DNA of 24,620 nt, from contig JALXFN010000024.1 in NCBI GenBank assembly GCA_027068975.1, positions 1-24,620 on the forward strand, read 5' to 3'. The first letter of the stretch is position 1, and each line of letters begins with the position of its first letter. Shown one piece after another: positions 5,314-17,845 of the stretch. The stretch is from Campylobacteraceae bacterium (lineage in GTDB: Bacteria > Campylobacterota > Campylobacteria > Campylobacterales > Sulfurovaceae). The position numbers were made by a program, and so were the translations under genes. The notes under the pieces are model-generated. The model saw only the letters and a list, made by a program, of their open reading frames with translations. It made no database searches and was not told the origin of the DNA.

Positions 5314-6477
5314 TTAATCCTCTAGTTTTTTTCCAAAAATCAATACTTTGAAAAATCTACTTCCCCATACACCGAACATGACCATCCATACCGTTAATGT
5401 TATATCAAAAAAGACAAGGAAGTTCCATGAGTTTGCAATGGCTAAAGAAGTTAGGATTCTCATCACTACAACAACTTGTGTCCAGTAAAACAGAATGGTA
5501 GTTAATCTATCTGCTCTCATTATGTTTCCAGAGTGACCAAGAGTTACTCTGGTTCCAAAACCGATAAGCATGGTAAAGAAAAATCCTAGTACTAAAACAT
5601 GTATATCTAGTGATAAAAAGTTTGTACCATTCATAAGTGAAAGAAGGTTTGTGATACTTGCCAGTGCAAATGCTACAGGTACCCAATAGAGGGCAATAAG
5701 TAAAATCCATATTAAGGGATTAGGGTTAGGTAGAGGTAGCTTCCATTGCCATAACTCTTTTCCTATCAAATATGCTAGAAGTATATCAGCTAAAAATGAT
5801 GAGCTTGGTTGAATGGTTTCTAAAACAACATGTAAAACAATAAGACCAATGATGACTTTAAAACGTTCTTTGTTTTTTATAACAGTTGTATGTGAAAAAA
5901 ATGGAACCATACGTTGAGCAACTGCAAAGATAACAATAAATAAGTAGAGGTAAATAGCAAGTTGTATAGCGAATTGATAGAGGGATGGTAACCCTATAGC
6001 CAAGATAAATAAGAGATGAGAAAATAGACCAAATGCCATACCTATTAATATCCACTCTTGGTCTTCCTTGTTTTCATGTACTGAACTTTTGTAGACATTA
6101 AGTAAAATCTTAATAGAGAGTATATGTCCTAAAAACATAAGAGCCATACCTATTACAAGTAGTGAAGTCGAAAAAAATATACCAATTTGATAAAAAATAA
6201 AAGCTACAATAAACATCCAAAATACGGTCATGTATTTTTGTTGAGCTATTATCTCTGTCCCTGAAAATCTTGGAAATGTAGTAAATAAAAATGCTAAAAA
6301 TGCAGGAGTAAAAAGCATATAAATAAGAGAATACGCATGATAGTCAATAGCTGAAATTTGACTGGGTAAAAACCCTTTTAATAGTAGCATAAAAATAAAC
6401 ATAGAGACAATTGCATTAACAAAAGCTAAAACAAAAAAAGGTTGATGAGGTTGGGAAAAGAAATAATGCTTATTCAT
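5314..6477 (-). CDS. Polytopic membrane protein, probably NnrS family (NO-response heme-copper membrane protein)
   Basis: 387 aa with roughly 12 predicted TM helices. The N-terminal HQPFFVLAF resembles the NnrS PFRLFF motif. Conserved His residues sit in TM segments. The assignment is tentative. Confidence 0.4.
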   Translation of the reverse strand: MNKHYFFSQPHQPFFVLAFVNAIVSMFIFMLLLKGFLPSQISAIDYHAYSLIYMLFTPAFLAFLFTTFPRFSGTEIIAQQKYMTVFWMFIVAFIFYQIGIFFSTSLLVIGMALMFLGHILSIKILLNVYKSSVHENKEDQEWILIGMAFGLFSHLLFILAIGLPSLYQFAIQLAIYLYLFIVIFAVAQRMVPFFSHTTVIKNKERFKVIIGLIVLHVVLETIQPSSSFLADILLAYLIGKELWQWKLPLPNPNPLIWILLIALYWVPVAFALASITNLLSLMNGTNFLSLDIHVLVLGFFFTMLIGFGTRVTLGHSGNIMRADRLTTILFYWTQVVVVMRILTSLAIANSWNFLVFFDITLTVWMVMFGVWGSRFFKVLIFGKKLED

Positions 6478-7720: not shown

Positions 7721-8947
7721 GTGAAAATGAAAATATTATTGATAAATAATAATCCAGTAGTATCAAGATTAACTGCCTTAAGTGCTAGAAAAGAAGATAT
7801 AGAGATAGATGAAGTTCAAGAAGTTACAGAGTTGACATCTTACAATTATGATATTGTATTTGTTGATGTAGACTCATGGAACGAAGATGTAAAAAGTACG
7901 ATATTTTCACATATAAATACACAAAAAAGGGTTCTTTTCTATGCTCAAGACGATAATGAAGATTTAGATTTATTCGATAAAGGCATACTAAAACCATTTT
8001 TACCTTCAGAAGTTTCTACCGTTATTAGAAGTGTTGAAGAGAGTAATGCTTTAGATGATATTAGTAATGAGATGGAAGAAGAGAAGAGTATGAATGTGGT
8101 TGAAGATGTAAAAGAAGATGCTACGGCAACACTTGCATCAGAGTCTATAAATCTTGAATCAGCAGAAGTTAAAACTGATTTAATGGATGAATTAGAAAAG
8201 ATTGATGAAGAAAAAGTTGAAGAGCCTTTATTAAGCAGTGCTGAGCTTGAAGATGATTTATTTAAAGAAACCTCTAAAGAATTAAATATTAATGTTAGTG
8301 ATTTTGCTTCAAAAAATGATAAAGAAGAGTTATTTGAACTTGATTTAAATGACGATAAAATTTCATTGGAGGATGAACTCTTTAATGCAGAAGAAAAAAC
8401 TGAAAAAGTGTTAAAAGATGAATTATTAGAGTTTGATCTTGATAATGAAAAAGAGATTAATTTGGATAATGAAAATCTTTTTGAATCTAAAAAAGATGAG
8501 CTTGAACCTGAAAAAAACAAGCTTGAATCCAAAGAAGAAGAGCTTCTTGAAGAGTTAAAAGTTGTTGCTACAGAAGAACCTAAACCTGAAATTGAAACAA
8601 AAGTCTTAGATGCTGAAGAGATAGGAACCATTAAGGATATTCTTGAAGATGACACGAATGAAGTAATGGAGTTAGAAGATTTAGTTGCTCCAAGTATGGC
8701 AGCAGCAGGTATTTCAGCTATGGCATTATCTTCTAATAAGCTGGTTGCTTCTGATGAAGTTGTGAATGAAGAAAATATAGATAAAAAGAAAAAGAAGAAG
8801 AGTAAAAAAGAGAAAAAAATAATGGTTGAAGATACAGAGTCCTCAGATAATTTAGTAAATGCTCTTTCTAATTTAAAAGTTGAAAGTCTTAAAGAACTTC
8901 TTGCTGGTGCAACAGTAACTATTAATATTCAGTTTCCAAAAGCTTAA
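7721..8947 (+). CDS. Highly acidic 'poly-E-rich' protein with a degenerate receiver-like N-terminal domain and a C-terminal Lys-rich patch
   Basis: The E/D/K-rich low-complexity body gives a Ser-rich phantom ORF on the opposite strand. The N-terminus MKILLINNN...YDIVFVDVD...ILKPF resembles a CheY receiver with NN replacing the DD pair. It sits immediately upstream of gmk, as I recall for H. pylori HP0322 and C. jejuni Cj1178c. Confidence 0.6.
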   Translation: MKMKILLINNNPVVSRLTALSARKEDIEIDEVQEVTELTSYNYDIVFVDVDSWNEDVKSTIFSHINTQKRVLFYAQDDNEDLDLFDKGILKPFLPSEVSTVIRSVEESNALDDISNEMEEEKSMNVVEDVKEDATATLASESINLESAEVKTDLMDELEKIDEEKVEEPLLSSAELEDDLFKETSKELNINVSDFASKNDKEELFELDLNDDKISLEDELFNAEEKTEKVLKDELLEFDLDNEKEINLDNENLFESKKDELEPEKNKLESKEEELLEELKVVATEEPKPEIETKVLDAEEIGTIKDILEDDTNEVMELEDLVAPSMAAAGISAMALSSNKLVASDEVVNEENIDKKKKKKSKKEKKIMVEDTESSDNLVNALSNLKVESLKELLAGATVTINIQFPKA

Positions 8948-11766: not shown

Positions 11767-11793
11767 GGTTAAGATATAGGATACATCTTAACC
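11767..11793. terminator. Bidirectional terminator hairpin between convergent argS and htpX
   Basis: 9-bp stem GGTTAAGAT / ATCTTAACC with 9-nt loop. Followed by TTTTAG on the plus strand. The htpX stop codon lies inside the 3' arm. Confidence 0.5.
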
Positions 11794-12624
11794 TTTTAGC
11801 ATTTCTAGTCTCTCAATTCTCTGTTCAGTACTAGGATGGGTACTAAAGAGCTGTTTCATAGAGAAATCTTTCCCTGTGAAGGGATTGATAATAAACATAT
11901 GAGCGGTCTGTGGCTCTGCCTCATGCATGACCATACCTCTGGCATAGTGGTCAAGTTTTTGTAAAGCACTCTGTAGCCACTCTGGATGACCTGTTATTCT
12001 TGCAGCACCTTCATCTGCCATAAACTCTCTGTTTCTGCTCACCGTCATCTGAATGATGGTCGCAGCCATTGGCATAATGAACATTAATGCCATCATTACA
12101 ATAGGGTTTGGTCTTTCATCATCACTACTACCACCAAAAAACATTCCAAAGTTTGCCAACATAGCAATGGCTCCTGAAATGGTTGCTGTAATGGTTCCTA
12201 CAAGCATATCATAATGTTTAATATGGCTCAACTCATGAGCAATGACAGCTTCAACCTCATCTTCTGTTAAGAGTTCTAATAGTCCTTCTGTCACAGCCAC
12301 TACAGCGTGTTCATAGTCACGCCCTGTTGCAAAAGCATTGGGTACTTGGTCAGGAATAATGTAGAGCTGAGGCATTGGTAGCTTAGCTTTTTTTGTCAAT
12401 CTATCCATAATTGCATACAATCCATGGGCTGAATTTCTATCTACAGGAATTGCATTGTAATGTTTCAAAACCTGCTCATGACTGTAAAAATAGGCATAAA
12501 AGTTCATTCCTATAGCAGCCAAAAAAGCAATTATCATTCCTGTTTGACCAGCAATTAACCCACCAAACCAAATAAAAAGGAGGGTTAATCCTGTCATAAG
12601 TACATACGTTTTAAATTGTTCCAT
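11788..12624 (-). CDS. htpX: Zinc metalloprotease HtpX (M48 family)
   Basis: HEXXH motif [11 protein letters not shown]-terminal TM helices and the M48 architecture. Length 278 aa. Confidence 0.85.
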
Positions 12625-12652: not shown

Positions 12653-13162
12653 TTATTTCTTTTTAGGTATTGTAATGGTTAATACCCCATTTTTATATTC
12701 ACTTTTATACTTTACTGCATCAGCATCTTTAGGTAGTGTCATACCTCGTTGAACCATACCAACATGTCTCTCTTGGTGTATGATTTTATCACCCTCTTTT
12801 TGCTCTTTTTGGGTTTCACTCTTAGCTTGGACACTTAGGTAGTTATCTTTAACATCGATTTTGATGCTCTTTTCATCCATACCTGCTAAATCCATTTTTA
12901 ACTCATAGTTGTCCCCTTTGTCTACCAGATCGGTATTGGGTTTAAATGAGAAGCCTTTAGAAAAGTTTGGCTCAATTGCTACACCTTTAAAAGCTTTGTT
13001 CCTAAACTCTGCAAAAGCTCGGTCCATCTCCTCTTGCATCTTTTGAAAGTGTTGAAATATTGGGTCATTGGCAAAAGGATTTTTGGTTAAATTTGTATCT
13101 GCTTGTATAGCTACCATTGGCAAAGTAGCCAAAAGTAGGGTTTTTAAGATTCTATTTTTCAA
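12653..13162 (-). CDS. Hsp20/alpha-crystallin family protein with a Sec signal peptide (predicted periplasmic small heat-shock protein). TTG start.
   Basis: N-terminal MKNRILKTLLLATLPMVAIQA-DT has the n/h/c regions and an AxA cleavage site of a signal peptide. The ACD core is KGDNYELKMDLAGMDEKSIKIDVKDNYLSVQAKSE...GVLTITIPKK. It starts at TTG with GGAG 7 nt upstream, 11 nt after the stop of the preceding Hsp20. Confidence 0.65.
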   Translation of the reverse strand: MKNRILKTLLLATLPMVAIQADTNLTKNPFANDPIFQHFQKMQEEMDRAFAEFRNKAFKGVAIEPNFSKGFSFKPNTDLVDKGDNYELKMDLAGMDEKSIKIDVKDNYLSVQAKSETQKEQKEGDKIIHQERHVGMVQRGMTLPKDADAVKYKSEYKNGVLTITIPKKK

Positions 13163-13173
13163 AGTTATTCTCC

Positions 13174-13617
13174 TTATTTAATGGAAATGTTACGTGCCTT
13201 TCTTGACTCTTCTTTTTCTAGTGAAATGTAGAGTCTACCATCTTCATAGTTGGCTGAGATTTTCTCTCTGTCCACATCTTTTGGTAAGACAAAACTTCGA
13301 GAGATAAGTCCATAACTACTTTCACAAAGATAGTAATCTTCCTCTTTCACTTCCTCTTTCGTTCTGCGTATTGCATTGACAGTCAGATAGTCATCTTCGA
13401 TTTTTAATTCTATCTCATCTTTATTAACGCCTGGTAAATCAATTTCAATGTCATAGGTATCAGAGCTATGTTTTGCAAAGTTTGCCAAAGGAAGATGTCT
13501 TGCTACATTTCCTAATGCCTCTTTAGTAACCTCTAAACCTTTTTCAACCTTCTCTTCAACAGCATTTACCAACTCTTTTCCATTTTCAATAATTTTATCT
13601 TTTGTTATACTCATCAT
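13174..13617 (-). CDS. Small heat-shock protein, Hsp20 family (cytoplasmic)
   Basis: ACD motifs YDIEIDLPGVNKDEIELKIEDDYLTVNA ... GRLYISLEKE. A strong RBS AAGGAG lies 5 nt before the ATGATG at 13617. The track ORF's 13641 start is probably too long. Confidence 0.8.
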   Translation of the reverse strand: MMSITKDKIIENGKELVNAVEEKVEKGLEVTKEALGNVARHLPLANFAKHSSDTYDIEIDLPGVNKDEIELKIEDDYLTVNAIRRTKEEVKEEDYYLCESSYGLISRSFVLPKDVDREKISANYEDGRLYISLEKEESRKARNISIK

Positions 13618-13627
13618 TGACTCCTTA

Positions 13628-14065
13628 TTACTTAATCTCAATTTTTTTGCTTGAAGTATCTATTTTTAGTTTTGGAATGGTAATCTCTAAAATTCCATTA
13701 ATAAATTCAGCCTCAATATTTGAAGTGTCTACTCTCTCTGGAAGTGTGAAACTTCTTGAAAAGAGACCATAACGACTCTCTACCTTATGGTAGTCTTCAT
13801 CTTTTACCTCTTCTCTCACATTTCTTTCCCCTGAAATGGTCAAGACATTTCCATCGACCTTAATGTCAACATTCTCTTTTTTAACACCAGGAAGCTCAAC
13901 TTCAATATGGTAATTGTCTTCTGTCTCACGGGTATTTACCTTTGGACGAAAATCAACTACTTCTTGTTCTGACGCTGCTTGTTCACCAATGGTGTTTATA
14001 ATTGTATTTACAAGGTCAAAACTCTTTCTAATGTCATTAAATGGGGTGTATTGTTTTACTATCAT
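13628..14065 (-). CDS. Small heat-shock protein, Hsp20 family (cytoplasmic)
   Basis: ACD motifs YHIEVELPGVKKENVDIKVDGNVLTISGER ... GILEITIPK. AAGGA RBS 7 nt upstream of the ATG. Confidence 0.8.
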   Translation of the reverse strand: MIVKQYTPFNDIRKSFDLVNTIINTIGEQAASEQEVVDFRPKVNTRETEDNYHIEVELPGVKKENVDIKVDGNVLTISGERNVREEVKDEDYHKVESRYGLFSRSFTLPERVDTSNIEAEFINGILEITIPKLKIDTSSKKIEIK

Positions 14066-14175
14066 GTTTTAATCCTTTTTGTTGTTTGTTATATTTGTTA
14101 GCACTATGGGCTAAACATGAGAGAATTATAATATAAGGAGGAGAAAAAAAATGCCACTTTAGTAGCACTTTTAAA

Positions 14176-14751
14176 TTATTGAGAGTTTTTAATGATTTGC
14201 TGACTTATTTCATGACTACTTAATGAGCTTTTCATATCAAGTTCACCAATTAAATCTGCTCTAATATAGATTGTAAGTTTTGCTAATGCTTGAGAGAGGC
14301 TATCTGCATCATCCATACTTATTTCTCGGTCACTCGTTATTTTAGTATGAAAAACATTTAAGAAGTTATGGTACTCTTTTAAAACCTCAGGCGAAGCAAA
14401 AATTGCTAAACGATGAGTATGAAATGTTAATTGTGTAAGCTGCTTATCTGTAAGATTTTTTTCCATAATAATTTTTTCAATAGTATTTATAAGTTCTTGA
14501 TAAGTGTTTGTTTTTAACTCAAGAAACTTAACATTTTGTTCTTTTTCAAGTTCAACAGAAGTTTGCTTGTTTAGTAATAAGGCTGTAATAAGTATAGTTG
14601 CTACTGTACCTAAGACAATTAAAATAATCTCCTGTGTAAAAGGCGTTGAATCGCTAAGGTTATAGGCTAACCGAAGAAAAAAATAGCCTCCAATAAATAC
14701 TATTCCATTTAAAACTATTAATACAATGTTGTTGTTAAACCAATTTTTCAT
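14176..14751 (-). CDS. Membrane protein with 2 TM helices and a ~120-aa helical cytoplasmic C-terminal domain, function unknown
   Basis: TM helices at IVLIVLNGIVFIGGYFF and IILIVLGTVATILITALLL. It sits between the Crp-family regulator and the Hsp20 cluster on the same strand. Confidence 0.45.
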   Translation of the reverse strand: MKNWFNNNIVLIVLNGIVFIGGYFFLRLAYNLSDSTPFTQEIILIVLGTVATILITALLLNKQTSVELEKEQNVKFLELKTNTYQELINTIEKIIMEKNLTDKQLTQLTFHTHRLAIFASPEVLKEYHNFLNVFHTKITSDREISMDDADSLSQALAKLTIYIRADLIGELDMKSSLSSHEISQQIIKNSQ

Positions 14752-14823: not shown

Positions 14824-15549
14824 CTAATTTAAAAGCAGTTGTTCTGTATTTTCAAGTAACTTTTTAACATCTTTTACATAGATGTTTTTACGCTGGTTTT
14901 CAATCACATTTTCAGCCTCTAACTCTTTTAAGTGTCGCTCAACCACATTACGAACCGTTCCTAGAAGTTTAGCTATTTCTGTTTTTGAGAGGTTTTGAAG
15001 CAGTTGGTAGTAGTGTGCATCATTAGGGTTGATATTTTGAAGTAAGAGCTTGGAGAGACGCTCAGAGGTAGAATAAAGAGACAAATCAGAAGCCAACTCT
15101 TCTGTATGACGCATTTGAGAGGCGATGTAAGGGAAAAAGTGCTGATTAAACTTCTCATTGGTTTTTAGCCATTCACGCACTTTGGCAATGGGCAGTTCTA
15201 ATACTTCTGAACTTTCTAAAACTTCATAAAGAACATCATGAGGTTTTCCATCAAGCAAGATGAGCGTATCAAACATATCCCCAGCACGATAGACAAAGAG
15301 TGTCTGCTCTTTAGCATTTTCAAAATTTATTTGAAAACTTTTAATTTTCCCCTTAAGTACTATGTAGAAATATTTTGAAAGCTCTCCATTCAGAAAAGGG
15401 GTCTCTTTTTTCTTAAAAGAGACTATTTTACCATATTGTAAAAACTGCTCTTCAAAACTTTGCTCTAAATCTTTAAAAATTTCTATTCCATAGTGTTGCA
15501 TTTTATCTCTTTTGTTCTTTTTGTTTTTAAATTTGTATATTATATCCAT
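14824..15549 (-). CDS. Crp/Fnr-family transcriptional regulator
   Basis: N-terminal cNMP-binding-like beta-roll region, and a C-terminal Crp-type HTH (SKTEIAKLLGTVRNVVERHLKELEAENVI). Confidence 0.7.
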   Translation of the reverse strand: MDIIYKFKNKKNKRDKMQHYGIEIFKDLEQSFEEQFLQYGKIVSFKKKETPFLNGELSKYFYIVLKGKIKSFQINFENAKEQTLFVYRAGDMFDTLILLDGKPHDVLYEVLESSEVLELPIAKVREWLKTNEKFNQHFFPYIASQMRHTEELASDLSLYSTSERLSKLLLQNINPNDAHYYQLLQNLSKTEIAKLLGTVRNVVERHLKELEAENVIENQRKNIYVKDVKKLLENTEQLLLN

Positions 15550-15624: not shown

Positions 15625-16653
15625 CTATATAAATTCTATTTTTTTTATGACAAACCGACACCCACCCTCATAAGAATCATCTAAAAATAATTCATAACTA
15701 TTGTTTTCAGCCAAATTACGAGCAATGGAAAGTCCCAAACCAAAACCAGACTTCTCTCGGTTACGACTCTCATCTAAAGCAACAAAAGGTTCAAAAATAC
15801 GCTCTCTATCTTTTTTTACTATGCCTATGCCTGTATCTTGCACACTAATAGAGTTTTTATCTGCTATCAACGTAATTGTTCCATTTTTAGTGTACTTGGT
15901 TGCATTATGCAAAAGGTTTACCAAAATCTTTTTAAGTGCCATACGATTAAACTCTATCTGCAAAGTATCAGAGATAAGACACTTTAACTCAACAGGTTTT
16001 TCAACGCGAATCAAAGGACAAACATCAGCATGTATAAACGCTTTTAACAAAAATGTCTCTTTGCTCTCTACAAGCTCTTGAGACTCAATATAGCCAATAA
16101 CATCAGATGAGAGTTCATTGATGTAGGCTGTCTCTTTTTTTAATATACCAATGGCTCTTGGCATATCTTCTTCGCCTATCATGTTGTCTTCAAACTCTTC
16201 AAGATAACCATCAATAATGGTCAAGGGTGTTTTAATGTCATGAGAGAGTGAAAGTATGAGATTGTTTAAATTTTTATTTCTATTTTTTAACTCCAAAATT
16301 GAGTGTTCTAAACGCGTAGAGAGTTGCTTGATAGATGTATGGATATGGTTAATATCGACTATTTTGTCCGTATAATTCTCTTCTAAAAAACGATTTTCAC
16401 TAATGGCATCTAAACGCTGATTAATCGCCTCAAACTTCTTAGAAAAGTAGTTCCCCATAAAGTAACTAAAAAGTCCAATAAGGGGTAAGGTCACTAAAAT
16501 AGTTAGCCCTATCTCTGAGAGCATGGTCATACCAATAGGCACATCTATGATGAGGTAGGTCATAATGGCTGTAAACAGGGCAATCAAAAACCCAGCCAAA
16601 CCATACATAAGTATCAAAAAGTTTTTAATCTTCATAAAGTGTATACCCCACAT
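15625..16653 (-). CDS. Sensor histidine kinase (HisKA + HATPase_c) with two TM helices and essentially no periplasmic loop
   Basis: H-box LSHDIKTPLTII, N-box LLHNATKYT and G-box QDTGIGI. The two N-terminal TMs are separated by only ~10 residues. The start may be M7 or M16. It overlaps the upstream RR gene end by 11-29 nt. Confidence 0.8.
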   Translation of the reverse strand: MWGIHFMKIKNFLILMYGLAGFLIALFTAIMTYLIIDVPIGMTMLSEIGLTILVTLPLIGLFSYFMGNYFSKKFEAINQRLDAISENRFLEENYTDKIVDINHIHTSIKQLSTRLEHSILELKNRNKNLNNLILSLSHDIKTPLTIIDGYLEEFEDNMIGEEDMPRAIGILKKETAYINELSSDVIGYIESQELVESKETFLLKAFIHADVCPLIRVEKPVELKCLISDTLQIEFNRMALKKILVNLLHNATKYTKNGTITLIADKNSISVQDTGIGIVKKDRERIFEPFVALDESRNREKSGFGLGLSIARNLAENNSYELFLDDSYEGGCRFVIKKIEFI

Positions 16654-17308
16654 TTCTTACCGTTTTAATTATCTCTTCATCACTATAAAGAGCAATTTTT
16701 TTACGCAGTTGATAGATATGTGTACCTATCCCTTTTTTATCGATGTTTCCAATGTCATTATTGTACAATATCTGCGACAACTCCTCTTTAGAAAAGACCT
16801 TTTTAGGAGTAGAGTAAAGTGTCTCTAAAATAGTATATTCACTAACCGTTAAAGTTAAAGGGTGATTTTGAACATAAAAACGTTTTAACGCTTCATGATG
16901 CTCTAACATGGCAAAAGTAACATCTTCTACTTGTGTTAACTCAGAGCGTCTTTTTAGTAAAGAGCTTATCTTCAAAGCCACCATCTTAGGAGAAAAAGGT
17001 TTAGCAATATAGTCATCAGCCCCAAGAGCGTAAGCTTTCTCTCTTTTTTCGTCAATATCCAATGCAGAGACAATAATAATGAGTGAATCTTTATGCCGTT
17101 TACGTACCTCATCACAAAGGCTTAAGCCATCAACTGAGGGCAACATAATGTCCAAAGTAAGTAAATCAAAACGTTCATTTTGAATCAACTTTAATGCCTC
17201 ACCTCCATTGTACGCCACACTTACATCATAAATCTCAGGCTCTAACCGATTTTGGATAAGCTTGACAATCTCAGGTTCATCTTCGACGATTAGTATTTTG
17301 TATTTCAT
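16625..17308 (-). CDS. OmpR/PhoB-family response regulator
   Basis: Receiver domain ILIVEDEPEI...DLLTLDIMLP...KP plus a C-terminal winged-helix domain (GYTLY). Confidence 0.85.
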   Translation of the reverse strand: MKYKILIVEDEPEIVKLIQNRLEPEIYDVSVAYNGGEALKLIQNERFDLLTLDIMLPSVDGLSLCDEVRKRHKDSLIIIVSALDIDEKREKAYALGADDYIAKPFSPKMVALKISSLLKRRSELTQVEDVTFAMLEHHEALKRFYVQNHPLTLTVSEYTILETLYSTPKKVFSKEELSQILYNNDIGNIDKKGIGTHIYQLRKKIALYSDEEIIKTVRNVGYTLYED

Positions 17309-17845
17309 CTATTCAAAACTGTTTTGTAATTTGGTAAACAAAAAGTCATTCTCTTTTGCCACAGAGTGACAAGCAATACAACCTTTAGTTCCTTTGTTCC
17401 ATGCTTCAAACTTACCATCTTTTTTAATAAACCTAGCATAACCCCAGTTGTCTCCATTGGCATCAAAGTTCTTTGAATCTTTCACCATATACTCCACTCT
17501 CTGAATTTTATCTGCTTCTAAAGCCTTAGGGAAAAGTTCCATCTTCTTAACCGACCAACCAATCTTAACGATTTTAGACCCCTCAGGCATCACTTTTAGT
17601 TTATCTTTCAAAGCATTATACCCAATAGGATTGGCTAAAATATAGCGTAGTTCATTTTTATCGGTTCTAAAATGGGTTGCGACTATTTTGTAGTCTGGGT
17701 AGCCCTCTATCATCTGAAAAGTTAAGTTGTTGTCAGGCATTTTTAACTTAGGTAACTTTGTGTTATGTGTTAAGTAGATGTCACTTGCGTAGGCTACTCC
17801 CACGATGAGAGTGGACAGTAGTGTGATTTTTGTTAGATTGTTCAT
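17309..17845 (-). CDS. Periplasmic monoheme c-type cytochrome, possibly cytochrome P460 / c'-beta-like, first gene of the operon with the RR and HK
   Basis: Signal peptide MNNLTKITLLSTLIVGVAYA-SD and a single CxxCH (CIACHS) near the C-terminus. Its stop abuts the RR start with no gap. Confidence 0.5.
   Translation of the reverse strand: MNNLTKITLLSTLIVGVAYASDIYLTHNTKLPKLKMPDNNLTFQMIEGYPDYKIVATHFRTDKNELRYILANPIGYNALKDKLKVMPEGSKIVKIGWSVKKMELFPKALEADKIQRVEYMVKDSKNFDANGDNWGYARFIKKDGKFEAWNKGTKGCIACHSVAKENDFLFTKLQNSFE

Follow-up and report, generated by a model that had tools for sequence, protein, structure and literature searches.

A predicted signal peptide on the third small heat shock protein of an hspA-hspB-hspC-htpX cluster in a Sulfurovum-like bacterium

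The stretch of DNA analyzed here, referred to as the window, comprises 24,620 nucleotides of contig JALXFN010000024.1 from the Campylobacteraceae bacterium assembly GCA_027068975.1, a vent-type, Sulfurovum-like organism. An identical sequence is present in a 34-kb ENA metagenome scaffold and in contigs of two metagenome-assembled genomes (MAGs). On its minus strand, three genes for small heat shock proteins (sHSPs) of the Hsp20 type follow each other in tandem and lead into a protease gene. The first two, hspA (13628..14065, 145 amino acids (aa), ATG start) and hspB (13174..13617, 147 aa), encode cytoplasmic sHSPs with a C-terminal I-x-I tail (KKIEIK and RNISIK, respectively). The third, hspC (12653..13162), encodes a protein of 169 aa from a TTG start codon, and the fourth, htpX (11788..12624), a 278-aa inner-membrane M48 zinc protease with an HELSH motif. 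This report deals mainly with HspC, since its sequence carries a predicted signal peptide and a predicted glycosylation sequon, two features that are foreign to bacterial sHSPs.

All three Hsp20 proteins matched the Pfam HSP20 model with E-values between 1.9e-21 and 5.4e-26. HtpX matched Peptidase_M48 (5e-37) and scored above the cut-off of the NCBIfam equivalog NF002826 (425.8 vs. 369 bits); its translation involves both HELSH, which corresponds to the HExxH motif, and a hydrophobic N-terminus. The intergenic gaps are short (hspA-hspB 10 nt, hspB-hspC 11 nt, hspC-htpX 28 nt), each of them contains AAGGAG, and 26 nt lie between the htpX end and argS, which is convergent. The hspB-hspC gap reads GGAGAATAACT, and here the Shine-Dalgarno (SD) sequence AAGGAG overlaps the hspB stop codon. 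The mechanically called reading frame of hspB begins at TTG 13641, but its start is ATG 13617 behind TAAGGAG, and the gene is annotated at 146 or 147 aa in public contigs. An earlier note on this DNA, which had been made from the sequence alone, described three tandem minus-strand Hsp20 genes feeding into htpX, separated by gaps of 11 nt (hspB-hspC) and 28 nt (hspC-htpX), with a TTG start and a GGAG ribosome-binding site for the third gene. The open reading frames, direct reading of the sequence, Pfam and NCBIfam bear out this arrangement, the gap figures match, and AAGGAG is located 7 nt upstream of the TTG codon.

Codons 1–21 of hspC (13100..13162, minus strand) encode the N-terminal sequence MKNRILKTLLLATLPMVAIQA, a predicted signal peptide for Sec and signal peptidase I (SPase I) with a conserved n/h/c architecture, and the predicted cleavage site is directly followed by DTNLT. 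The n-region involves K2, R4, and K7, the h-region is LLLATLPMVAI (11–13 residues with a central proline), and Ala21 occupies position −1. Positive charges precede the hydrophobic core and acidic or neutral residues come after it. As a surrogate test for signal peptide character, we compared the hydropathy of this segment with that of the periplasmic cytochrome P460 encoded in the same window. The 10-residue hydropathy maximum was 2.33 for HspC and 2.42 for cytochrome P460, and values of 1.27 and 0.45 were obtained for HspA and HspB, respectively. Over 19 residues the HspC N-terminus reached a hydropathy of 1.31, compared with at least 2 in anchored relatives, and this value is too low for a transmembrane anchor. 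Export as a lipoprotein or via the Tat pathway was rejected because the segment contains neither a lipobox cysteine nor a twin-arginine motif. In the AlphaFold2 (AF2) model, residues 3–12 form a detached low-confidence helix and residues 13–27 are disordered with a predicted local distance difference test score (pLDDT) below 50.

A database search yielded 95 HspC homologues (40–94% identity), nearly all of which consist of 160–180 aa. The n/h/c layout is kept in 89 of them although individual residues drift. Among the 93 aligned homologues, Ala21 is kept in 90, and the residue at position −3 is I, L, V, or A. The hspC reading frame starts at the same codon in 15 loci, that is, in the window and in 14 further species-level genomes. 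ATG is used in 13 of these loci and GTG in one, TTG is confined to the window, and a purine-rich SD sequence is always present upstream. The TTG is also the first possible start downstream of the preceding stop codon. For codons 2–21, we calculated a dN/dS of 0.20 (28 pairs), which indicates that these codons are translated and constrained by purifying selection; the corresponding value for the alpha-crystallin domain (ACD) is 0.06. Three alternative starts (Met16, Met42, Met46) were considered and rejected: Methionine is found in only 53 of 93 sequences at position 16 and in 35 of 93 at position 42, and neither of these two codons is preceded by an SD sequence. The possibility of a true start downstream of the hydrophobic segment, which had been raised before, is thus ruled against by a conserved start codon and by the lack of conservation of Met16 and Met42. 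From the architecture, the alanine at −1, the start conservation and the dN/dS value we infer, with good support, that HspC bears a Sec/SPase I signal peptide that is cut after Ala21, as had been suggested for this 169-aa protein.

The predicted mature N-terminus of HspC is formed by codons 22–26 (13085..13099, minus strand). These encode DTNLT, which conforms to the N-glycosylation sequon D/E-x-N-x-S/T, and such a sequon was found right after the predicted cleavage site in 80 of the 95 homologues. Column counts over the 93 aligned sequences gave D/E at position 22 in 86, N at position 24 in 86 and S/T at position 26 in 85 sequences (T in 56, S in 29). The x positions vary (position 23: S in 35, T in 25, N in 19, plus others; position 25: L in 53, I in 14, V and A in 5 each, plus others), and positions 20 and 27, which flank the sequon region, are variable as well. 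The variable x positions together with the alternation of serine and threonine suggest that selection acts on the sequon and not on one particular peptide. The sequon, in which x is not proline, is located in the flexible segment predicted for residues 13–27. The PglB oligosaccharyltransferase of Campylobacterota modifies extracytoplasmic proteins at the acceptor D/E-x-N-x-S/T and does so in the periplasm; the PglB of Sulfurovum lithotrophicum has been characterized (PMC6025236). Genes of the N-glycosylation (pgl) pathway are present in the genomes of vent Sulfurovum and Nitratiruptor (PMC2040194). Since a PglB sequon would be of no use in the cytoplasm, its conservation constitutes independent evidence for export of HspC, and Asn24 is probably N-glycosylated by PglB. 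A sub-clade of more distant homologues (P0086-P0091, 46–49% identity) kept the signal peptide and lacks the sequon.

The proposed modification resembles that of the PglB N-glycoproteins of Campylobacter jejuni and Helicobacter pullorum (such as CgpA/HgpA), in which the sequon is also found in a flexible segment near the signal peptide cleavage site (PMC6025236). However, there is no sHSP among the glycoproteins described in that paper, and glycosylation of HspC is a prediction only. The cytochrome P460 of the window has a signal peptide of its own (MNNLTKITLLSTLIVGVAYA, followed by the residues SD) and carries a D/E-x-N-x-S/T sequon at residue 38. We know of no bacterial example of an N-glycosylated chaperone.

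The remaining part of HspC resembles sHSPs in sequence and fold. Its ACD is encoded by codons 76–169 plus stop (12653..12937, minus strand), ends with GVLTITIPKKK and is not followed by a C-terminal extension. In the AF2 model, the pLDDT over residues 76–169 is about 90. The Pfam HSP20 match (1.9e-21) covers residues 80–169 of HspC and ends at profile position 89 of 102. For HspA, which lacks a hydrophobic N-terminus, the match extends over profile positions 3–102 of 102 (5e-26), and for HspB it reaches position 102 of 102 as well (7e-23). When the HspC model was compared with the PDB by Foldseek, wheat HSP16.9 (1gme) was the top match (probability 1.0), 133 matches were obtained at E <= 1e-3, and all of the top 50 listed matches are sHSP or alpha-crystallin-type proteins. 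Entamoeba histolytica HSP18.5, an sHSP of Mycobacterium marinum and Xanthomonas HspA also matched with a probability of 1.0 (identifiers including 3gla and 5zs3). A sequence search of the PDB with HspC returned plant and bacterial sHSPs with E-values of about 1e-9 to 2e-9. Residues 28–58 contain an N-terminal motif of the sHSP type, NPF..DP.FQHFQK.Q..M(D/N)(K/R).F..F, and a helix is predicted for residues 34–58.

A deviation from the classical pattern is found at the C-terminus. HspA ends with ...KLKIDTSSKKIEIK and HspB with ...EESRKARNISIK, both of which include an I-x-I motif (IEIK and ISIK). In the alignments, the C-terminal I-x-I/V extension is present neither in HspC nor anywhere in its family, all members of which stop at ...GVLTITIPKKK. 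Large sHSP oligomers are built up when the I-x-I/V motif of one dimer inserts into the beta4/beta8 groove of the next. Because this tail is missing, HspC is predicted to form a dimer or a small oligomer with an open beta4/beta8 groove, and it probably stays in this state with the groove unoccupied. HspA and HspB share 44% identity over the ACD, and each of them is about 30% identical to HspC, which indicates that HspC is not a recent duplicate of either protein. Domain and fold place HspC in the Hsp20 superfamily, but it does not show the classical I-x-I tail.

To describe the locus in related bacteria, we scanned one genome per species, which yielded 14 loci, and then carried out tblastn searches with the proteins of the window. 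The query of the genome scan was the closer alignment set A2, which reaches close relatives only, and thus absence from cultured Sulfurovum is not established by it. The related MAGs carry the source labels Campylobacteraceae bacterium, uncultured Sulfurovum sp. and Epsilonproteobacteria bacterium. The genes hspA, hspB, and hspC are contiguous in every locus of sufficient length and are syntenic in 14 species-level MAGs. In nine loci (L005-L011, L013, L018), htpX directly follows hspC. It was not detected by tblastn after hspC in L014, L016, and L017, and reading of the open reading frames of L016 revealed that a convergent unrelated gene follows hspC there. HtpX is, therefore, a frequent but not universal fourth gene. 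HspC is the fastest-evolving of the encoded proteins, with 57–94% identity compared with 81–97% for HspB and 84–96% for HtpX, and it also evolves faster than HspA. The proposal of a combined cytoplasm/envelope operon in the earlier note is supported by the gaps of 10–28 nt, a single conserved promoter module and the synteny, and its reading of HspC as an exported sHSP held up in silico, but htpX does not belong to the unit everywhere.

Two further minus-strand genes are located upstream of hspA, and the earlier note had considered both of them as possible members of the same regulon. The more distant one (14824..15549) encodes a Crp/Fnr-family protein of 241 aa, the candidate regulator of the hsp operon, and the one between this gene and the operon (14176..14751) a protein of 191 aa with two predicted transmembrane (TM) helices. 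Their strand and the family of the former (Pfam cNMP_binding and HTH_Crp_2) proved to be as described. Of the 13 species loci with enough upstream DNA, 11 have the Crp-family gene ahead of hspA, and it is immediately adjacent in L006, L012, L013, L014, L016, and L017. Together with a conserved palindrome at class II distance (see below) this supports the suggestion that the regulator belongs to the system. The 2-TM gene does not share this pattern, since it is a lineage-specific insertion. It is present in the species of the window only (L001, L002) and absent from all other loci, including L006, the neighbouring genes of which are about 96% identical. It is, therefore, a recent insertion that is not part of the conserved unit, and the position of the gene upstream of the operon's own promoter also places it outside. 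Its product consists of two hydrophobic helices in a 2-TM/coiled-coil arrangement, gave a sub-threshold Pfam match to DUF4956 and had no NCBIfam match.

The region between the 2-TM gene and hspA contains the predicted control elements. The −10 hexamer TATAAT of the hsp operon promoter (14125..14130, minus strand) is invariant in the aligned loci, and positions 14152..14167 (no strand assigned) are occupied by the 16-bp palindrome TGCTACTAAAGTGGCA with the half-sites TGCNAC and GTGGCA, a candidate operator of the Crp/Fnr type. When the sequences upstream of hspA were aligned for 12 loci, two invariant blocks stood out amid diverged sequence, namely the palindrome (A)TGCNACTAAAGTGGCA and TATAAT. 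The window and each related locus contain one copy of the palindrome; it is exact in 12 loci and present with one mismatch in L017 and L018. Of 13 loci, 2 have a spacing of 21 nt between the palindrome and the −10 box and 11 a spacing of 22 nt. With an assumed transcription start about 7 nt downstream of the −10 box, the centre of the dyad would be located at −41.5 or −42.5. The region around −41.5 is the classical class II position of activators of the CRP/FNR type.

Position 4 of the left half-site varies between T, A, G, and C without keeping base pairing, and this pattern favours a protein binding site over an RNA hairpin. A function as a mere intrinsic terminator is also less likely because the palindrome is kept whatever gene is located upstream, because its distance of 21–22 nt to the −10 box is fixed and because the variation in the left arm is unpaired. 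We also considered whether GTGGCA might belong to a sigma-54 promoter, but inspection by eye led us to reject this reading, since no locus has a correctly spaced −12 GC element and since a conserved TATAAT follows. The elements of other heat shock circuits were not found: There is no CIRCE element with up to 3 mismatches, no HAIR element near the operon (the single HAIR-like match at 986–1006 is at chance level), and no ROSE, fourU or other thermometer family in an Rfam E-value scan of 13950–14250.

The putative regulator matched Pfam cNMP_binding (PF00027, 2e-12) and HTH_Crp_2 (PF13545, 1e-11), and E. coli CRP, the closest solved structure (5e-13), can be aligned to the entire protein. The residues that contact cAMP in CRP (G71/E72/R82/S83) are replaced by D/T/H/D, and the protein does not contain a single cysteine. 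These data argue that it is neither a cAMP receptor nor an Fe-S sensor of the FNR type, and its NCBIfam scores are far below the cut-offs for CRP, Fnr, and NtcA. Most likely, the neighbouring Crp/Fnr-family protein binds the palindrome and would act there as a class II activator.

Downstream of the promoter, the hspA leader contains a 5'-proximal stem-loop or inverted repeat of the type TTTAGCC-loop-GGCTAAA (14098..14115, minus strand), a feature shared in position by 9 of 12 loci. It starts about 10 nt after the −10 box, and its stems comprise 6–10 bp with G.U variants on the sense strand. Single-sequence folds gave energies of −5.3 to −8.2 kcal/mol in relatives and of −3.4 kcal/mol in the window. 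The stem-loop is absent in the three loci without a detected downstream htpX. Since it excludes the SD sequence and since the rest of the leader is A-rich, an RNA thermometer is unlikely; a 5' stabilizer or a second operator are candidate functions. In L008, a 272-bp element (L008:2042-2313) resembling a miniature inverted-repeat transposable element (MITE), with perfect 20-bp terminal inverted repeats (AAGTACCTGACCATAATAAA), is inserted exactly into the loop of this hairpin, so that about 325 nt separate the promoter from the start codon. The element is missing from the window and from the other loci.

To see how far the extracytoplasmic features extend beyond close relatives, we carried out a profile search over 1.84 billion cluster representatives (50%-identity clusters) and obtained 54 matches at E <= 1e-30. 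Among the best 149 new representatives, 131 carry a hydrophobic N-terminal segment, and a crude hydropathy rule, in which at least 19 hydrophobic residues define the anchor-like class, assigned 36 of them as signal-peptide-like and 95 as anchor-like. In most of the 149 representatives, the profile match begins only at position 29–37, so that the signal peptide of the query does not account for this enrichment. The opening premise of the earlier note that sHSPs are cytoplasmic almost by definition does not hold in this part of sequence space. The anchored forms (P0096-P0244, P0259-P0367) consist of an N-terminal TM-like helix, a low-complexity linker, the motif WDPF.EMERMQ.EMNRMF and an ACD, and the I-x-I tail is either present or absent. 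Judging from the short positive N-tails and the kinship with the signal-peptide forms, the ACD of these proteins would be located outside. Named sources include Kaarinaea lacus, Methylococcaceae, a MAG of Gammaproteobacteria and Omnitrophota, and the proteins are annotated as Hsp20/alpha-crystallin family protein only. The Pfam family PF27746 (Small_heat_shock_put), which is found on some members, was rejected as a marker of exported forms because it also matches class I sHSPs of soybean. In L021:751-6245, the gene for P0086 (49% identical, no sequon) is located 6 nt upstream of a Bat-like MoxR AAA+-DUF58-DUF4381-VWA-VWA-TPR operon, a setting that is also linked to the envelope but differs from that of hspC, and others among the distant signal-peptide sHSPs stand alone.

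We consider it probable (at roughly 0.6) that hspA-hspB-hspC-htpX constitutes one stress operon serving the cytoplasm, the inner membrane and the periplasm, and that HspC is an exported, probably glycosylated holdase. Sequence and comparison show the gene order, the start site, the features of the signal peptide, the sequon, the missing tail, the ACD fold, the synteny and the conserved promoter and palindrome; from these we infer co-transcription, export and cleavage, glycosylation, holdase activity, the oligomeric state as well as binding of the regulator and the sign of its effect. According to this model, a single promoter would be switched on by the Crp/Fnr-family class II activator at the palindrome. 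HspA and HspB would act as cytoplasmic holdases able to pass their clients to ATP-dependent machines, and HtpX would remove damaged proteins of the inner membrane. The HspC precursor would be exported in unfolded form via Sec, signal peptidase I would cut after Ala21, and the flexible new N-terminus D22-T-N24-L-T26 would then probably be glycosylated on Asn24 by PglB. In the periplasm, HspC would work as an ATP-independent holdase, the N-terminal region and open groove of which bind unfolding envelope proteins. These clients may be released spontaneously or handed over to periplasmic proteases and foldases. In this way, one regulatory input would protect all three compartments.

Several observations weigh against parts of this model. 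Without the I-x-I tail and large oligomers, classical sHSPs are not fully active, and thus the tail-less HspC may not be a holdase. At position −3 of the cleavage site many family members carry Ile, Leu, or Val, which are acceptable but not optimal for SPase I. A sequon at the extreme mature N-terminus is unusual, the P0086-P0091 sub-clade does without it, and the link between PglB and the genomes that carry hspC comes from genus-level literature only. On the regulatory side, the −41.5 placement is an assumption on the transcription start, a site at this position could equally serve a repressor, and the palindrome together with a T-run was also scored as weakly terminator-like. Finally, the unrelated contexts of the distant members suggest that the link to HtpX and Crp is specific for the Sulfurovum-like lineage.

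A different interpretation accepts export but not chaperone function. HspC might be a periplasmic binding or adaptor module in which the free beta4/beta8 groove of the ACD docks a specific partner, or it might be a structural component of the envelope. Its expression together with stress genes would then be a mere matter of convenience. The loss of the I-x-I tail of canonical sHSP assembly across the whole family is compatible with such a role, and so are the more rapid evolution of HspC (57–94% identity) compared with HspA, HspB, and HtpX and the occurrence of distant members in non-stress contexts, such as that upstream of the MoxR-DUF58-VWA-TPR operon. However, the mature protein keeps the DPxFxxFQKxQxxMDxxF region, which is the main client-binding part in sHSPs, and in the Sulfurovum-like lineage its gene is always the third cistron after two classical sHSPs, usually with htpX next to it. 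We consider a non-chaperone function unlikely on these grounds, although it deserves attention.

The other two alternatives concern the location of the protein. In the first of them, the N-terminal segment would stay uncut and tether HspC as a type II membrane protein, with the ACD held on the periplasmic side of the inner membrane, close to the substrates of HtpX. Anchor-like N-termini form the majority in the wider clade (95 of 149), which suggests an ancestral membrane-proximal function. The hydrophobic core of HspC itself, however, comprises 11–13 residues with a central proline and is too short for a bilayer, its 19-residue hydropathy is 1.31 instead of at least 2, and the combination of alanine at −1 (90 of 93) with a subsequent acidic residue is that of a typical SPase I site, so that we regard an uncleaved anchor as quite improbable. 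A cytoplasmic HspC, which would imply either a mis-assigned start or an N-terminal stretch that serves as amphipathic or membrane-association segment on the cytoplasmic side, appears more improbable still, and we give it hardly any weight. TTG is a rare start codon, and some sHSPs such as Lo18 and Hsp17 bind to membranes from the cytoplasmic side. On the other hand, AAGGAG is located 7 nt before the TTG and the orthologues begin at this codon with ATG or GTG; Met16 (53 of 93) and Met42 (35 of 93) lack both strict conservation and an SD sequence; codons 2–21 are under purifying selection and encode positive charges before the hydrophobic core; and the conserved PglB sequon would not have a cytoplasmic role.

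In comparison with the bacterial class A/B sHSPs (E. coli IbpA/IbpB, Xanthomonas HspA, Mycobacterium tuberculosis Hsp16.3; PF00011), HspC shares the alpha-crystallin fold and the sHSP-type N-terminal region with its DPF...M(D/N)(K/R)xF motif. It differs from them by the predicted cleavable signal peptide, by the sequon, by the missing I-x-I/V tail and by its proposed compartment, in which there is no DnaK/ClpB and no ATP. HspA and HspB form a two-sHSP pair in one operon that is comparable to IbpA/IbpB. Cleavable N-terminal targeting out of the cytosol is generally known from the sHSPs of the plant endoplasmic reticulum (ER) lumen (HSP22-ER class) and from chloroplast Hsp21, and the latter was among both the structural and the sequence matches of HspC. 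However, the compartments of these plant proteins contain ATP and Hsp70 and the C-terminal extension is kept, whereas the bacterial periplasm has neither ATP nor Hsp70. A natural counterpart of the tail-less C-terminus is human HSPB6 (Hsp20), which is generally known to lack the I-x-I/V motif and to form dimers, the open beta4/beta8 groove of which accommodates motifs of partner proteins. HSPB6 comes from the metazoan cytosol and dimerizes in a different mode, though, and its homology to HspC does not extend beyond the ACD. In architecture, the targeted plant sHSPs and HSPB6 come nearest to HspC.

The periplasm is devoid of ATP, and none of its known holdases (Spy, Skp, SurA, HdeA/B) is related to the stress chaperones of the cytoplasm. 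Spy, Skp, and HdeA/HdeB are the nearest functional analogues and would have the same job as proposed for HspC, the energy-independent capture of unfolding envelope proteins, but their folds are unrelated to that of HspC. The logic of co-inducing a holdase with HtpX is generally known from the Cpx regulon of E. coli (spy, degP, htpX). There, the coupling to HtpX is achieved by a regulon and a two-component system, whereas here it would be achieved by an operon and a candidate Crp/Fnr-family regulator. Full-text searches aimed at bacterial sHSPs that are periplasmic, secreted or anchored in the membrane turned up no paper on such proteins, but most subscription journals were not covered and this is absence of evidence only. 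Candidate papers treat Hsp20 as a chaperone of the cytoplasm or mention it in a different sense; a search for literature on Hsp20 in Sulfurovum or Campylobacterota gave nothing relevant.

If HspC is indeed secreted, it would bring the most widespread family of ATP-independent chaperones into envelope quality control, and it would have to be asked how a periplasmic sHSP lets go of its clients in the absence of DnaK/ClpB. The phenomenon of extracytoplasmic sHSPs appears to be broad (131 of the 149 nearest representatives), and yet we found no description of it in the literature. The tail-less HspC may be regarded as a natural experiment, in which ACD and N-terminal region are combined without I-x-I-driven oligomerization. 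The conserved sequon predicts an N-glycosylated chaperone and would provide a handy read-out of export, and the pair of operator and regulator might represent a new specificity in the Crp/Fnr family. Combining all of these elements leads to a more far-reaching proposal, which we put forward tentatively and with more doubt than confidence. HspC might represent a large uncharacterized class of extracytoplasmic sHSPs of diderm bacteria, either released via Sec or tethered by an anchor. The Sulfurovum-like form of this class would be N-glycosylated and would have lost the I-x-I tail, which leaves the groove free for hydrophobic beta-strand motifs of unfolded envelope proteins. Its operon would be activated by a dedicated Crp/Fnr-family protein that responds to a signal other than cAMP or an Fe-S cluster and recognizes the new operator TGCNAC-N4-GTGGCA.

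Some other features of the window should be mentioned. Genes related to nitrogen oxides flank the hsp module (17309-17845, 15625-17308, and 5314-6477, all on the minus strand). This flanking set consists of the cytochrome P460, then an OmpR-type response regulator together with a histidine kinase, and farther off an NnrS protein. At 20279-20331 on the minus strand, a borderline tRNA-like Rfam match (29.5 bits vs. a gathering score of 29, model positions 5–66) was obtained in a 560-nt gene-free stretch. It was not called by ARAGORN and is possibly a tRNA fragment. An open reading frame of 406–408 aa (7721-8947, plus strand) between the genes for a DHH phosphoesterase and guanylate kinase, for which no Pfam match is on record, is conserved in near-identical public contigs of the same species (L001-L004).

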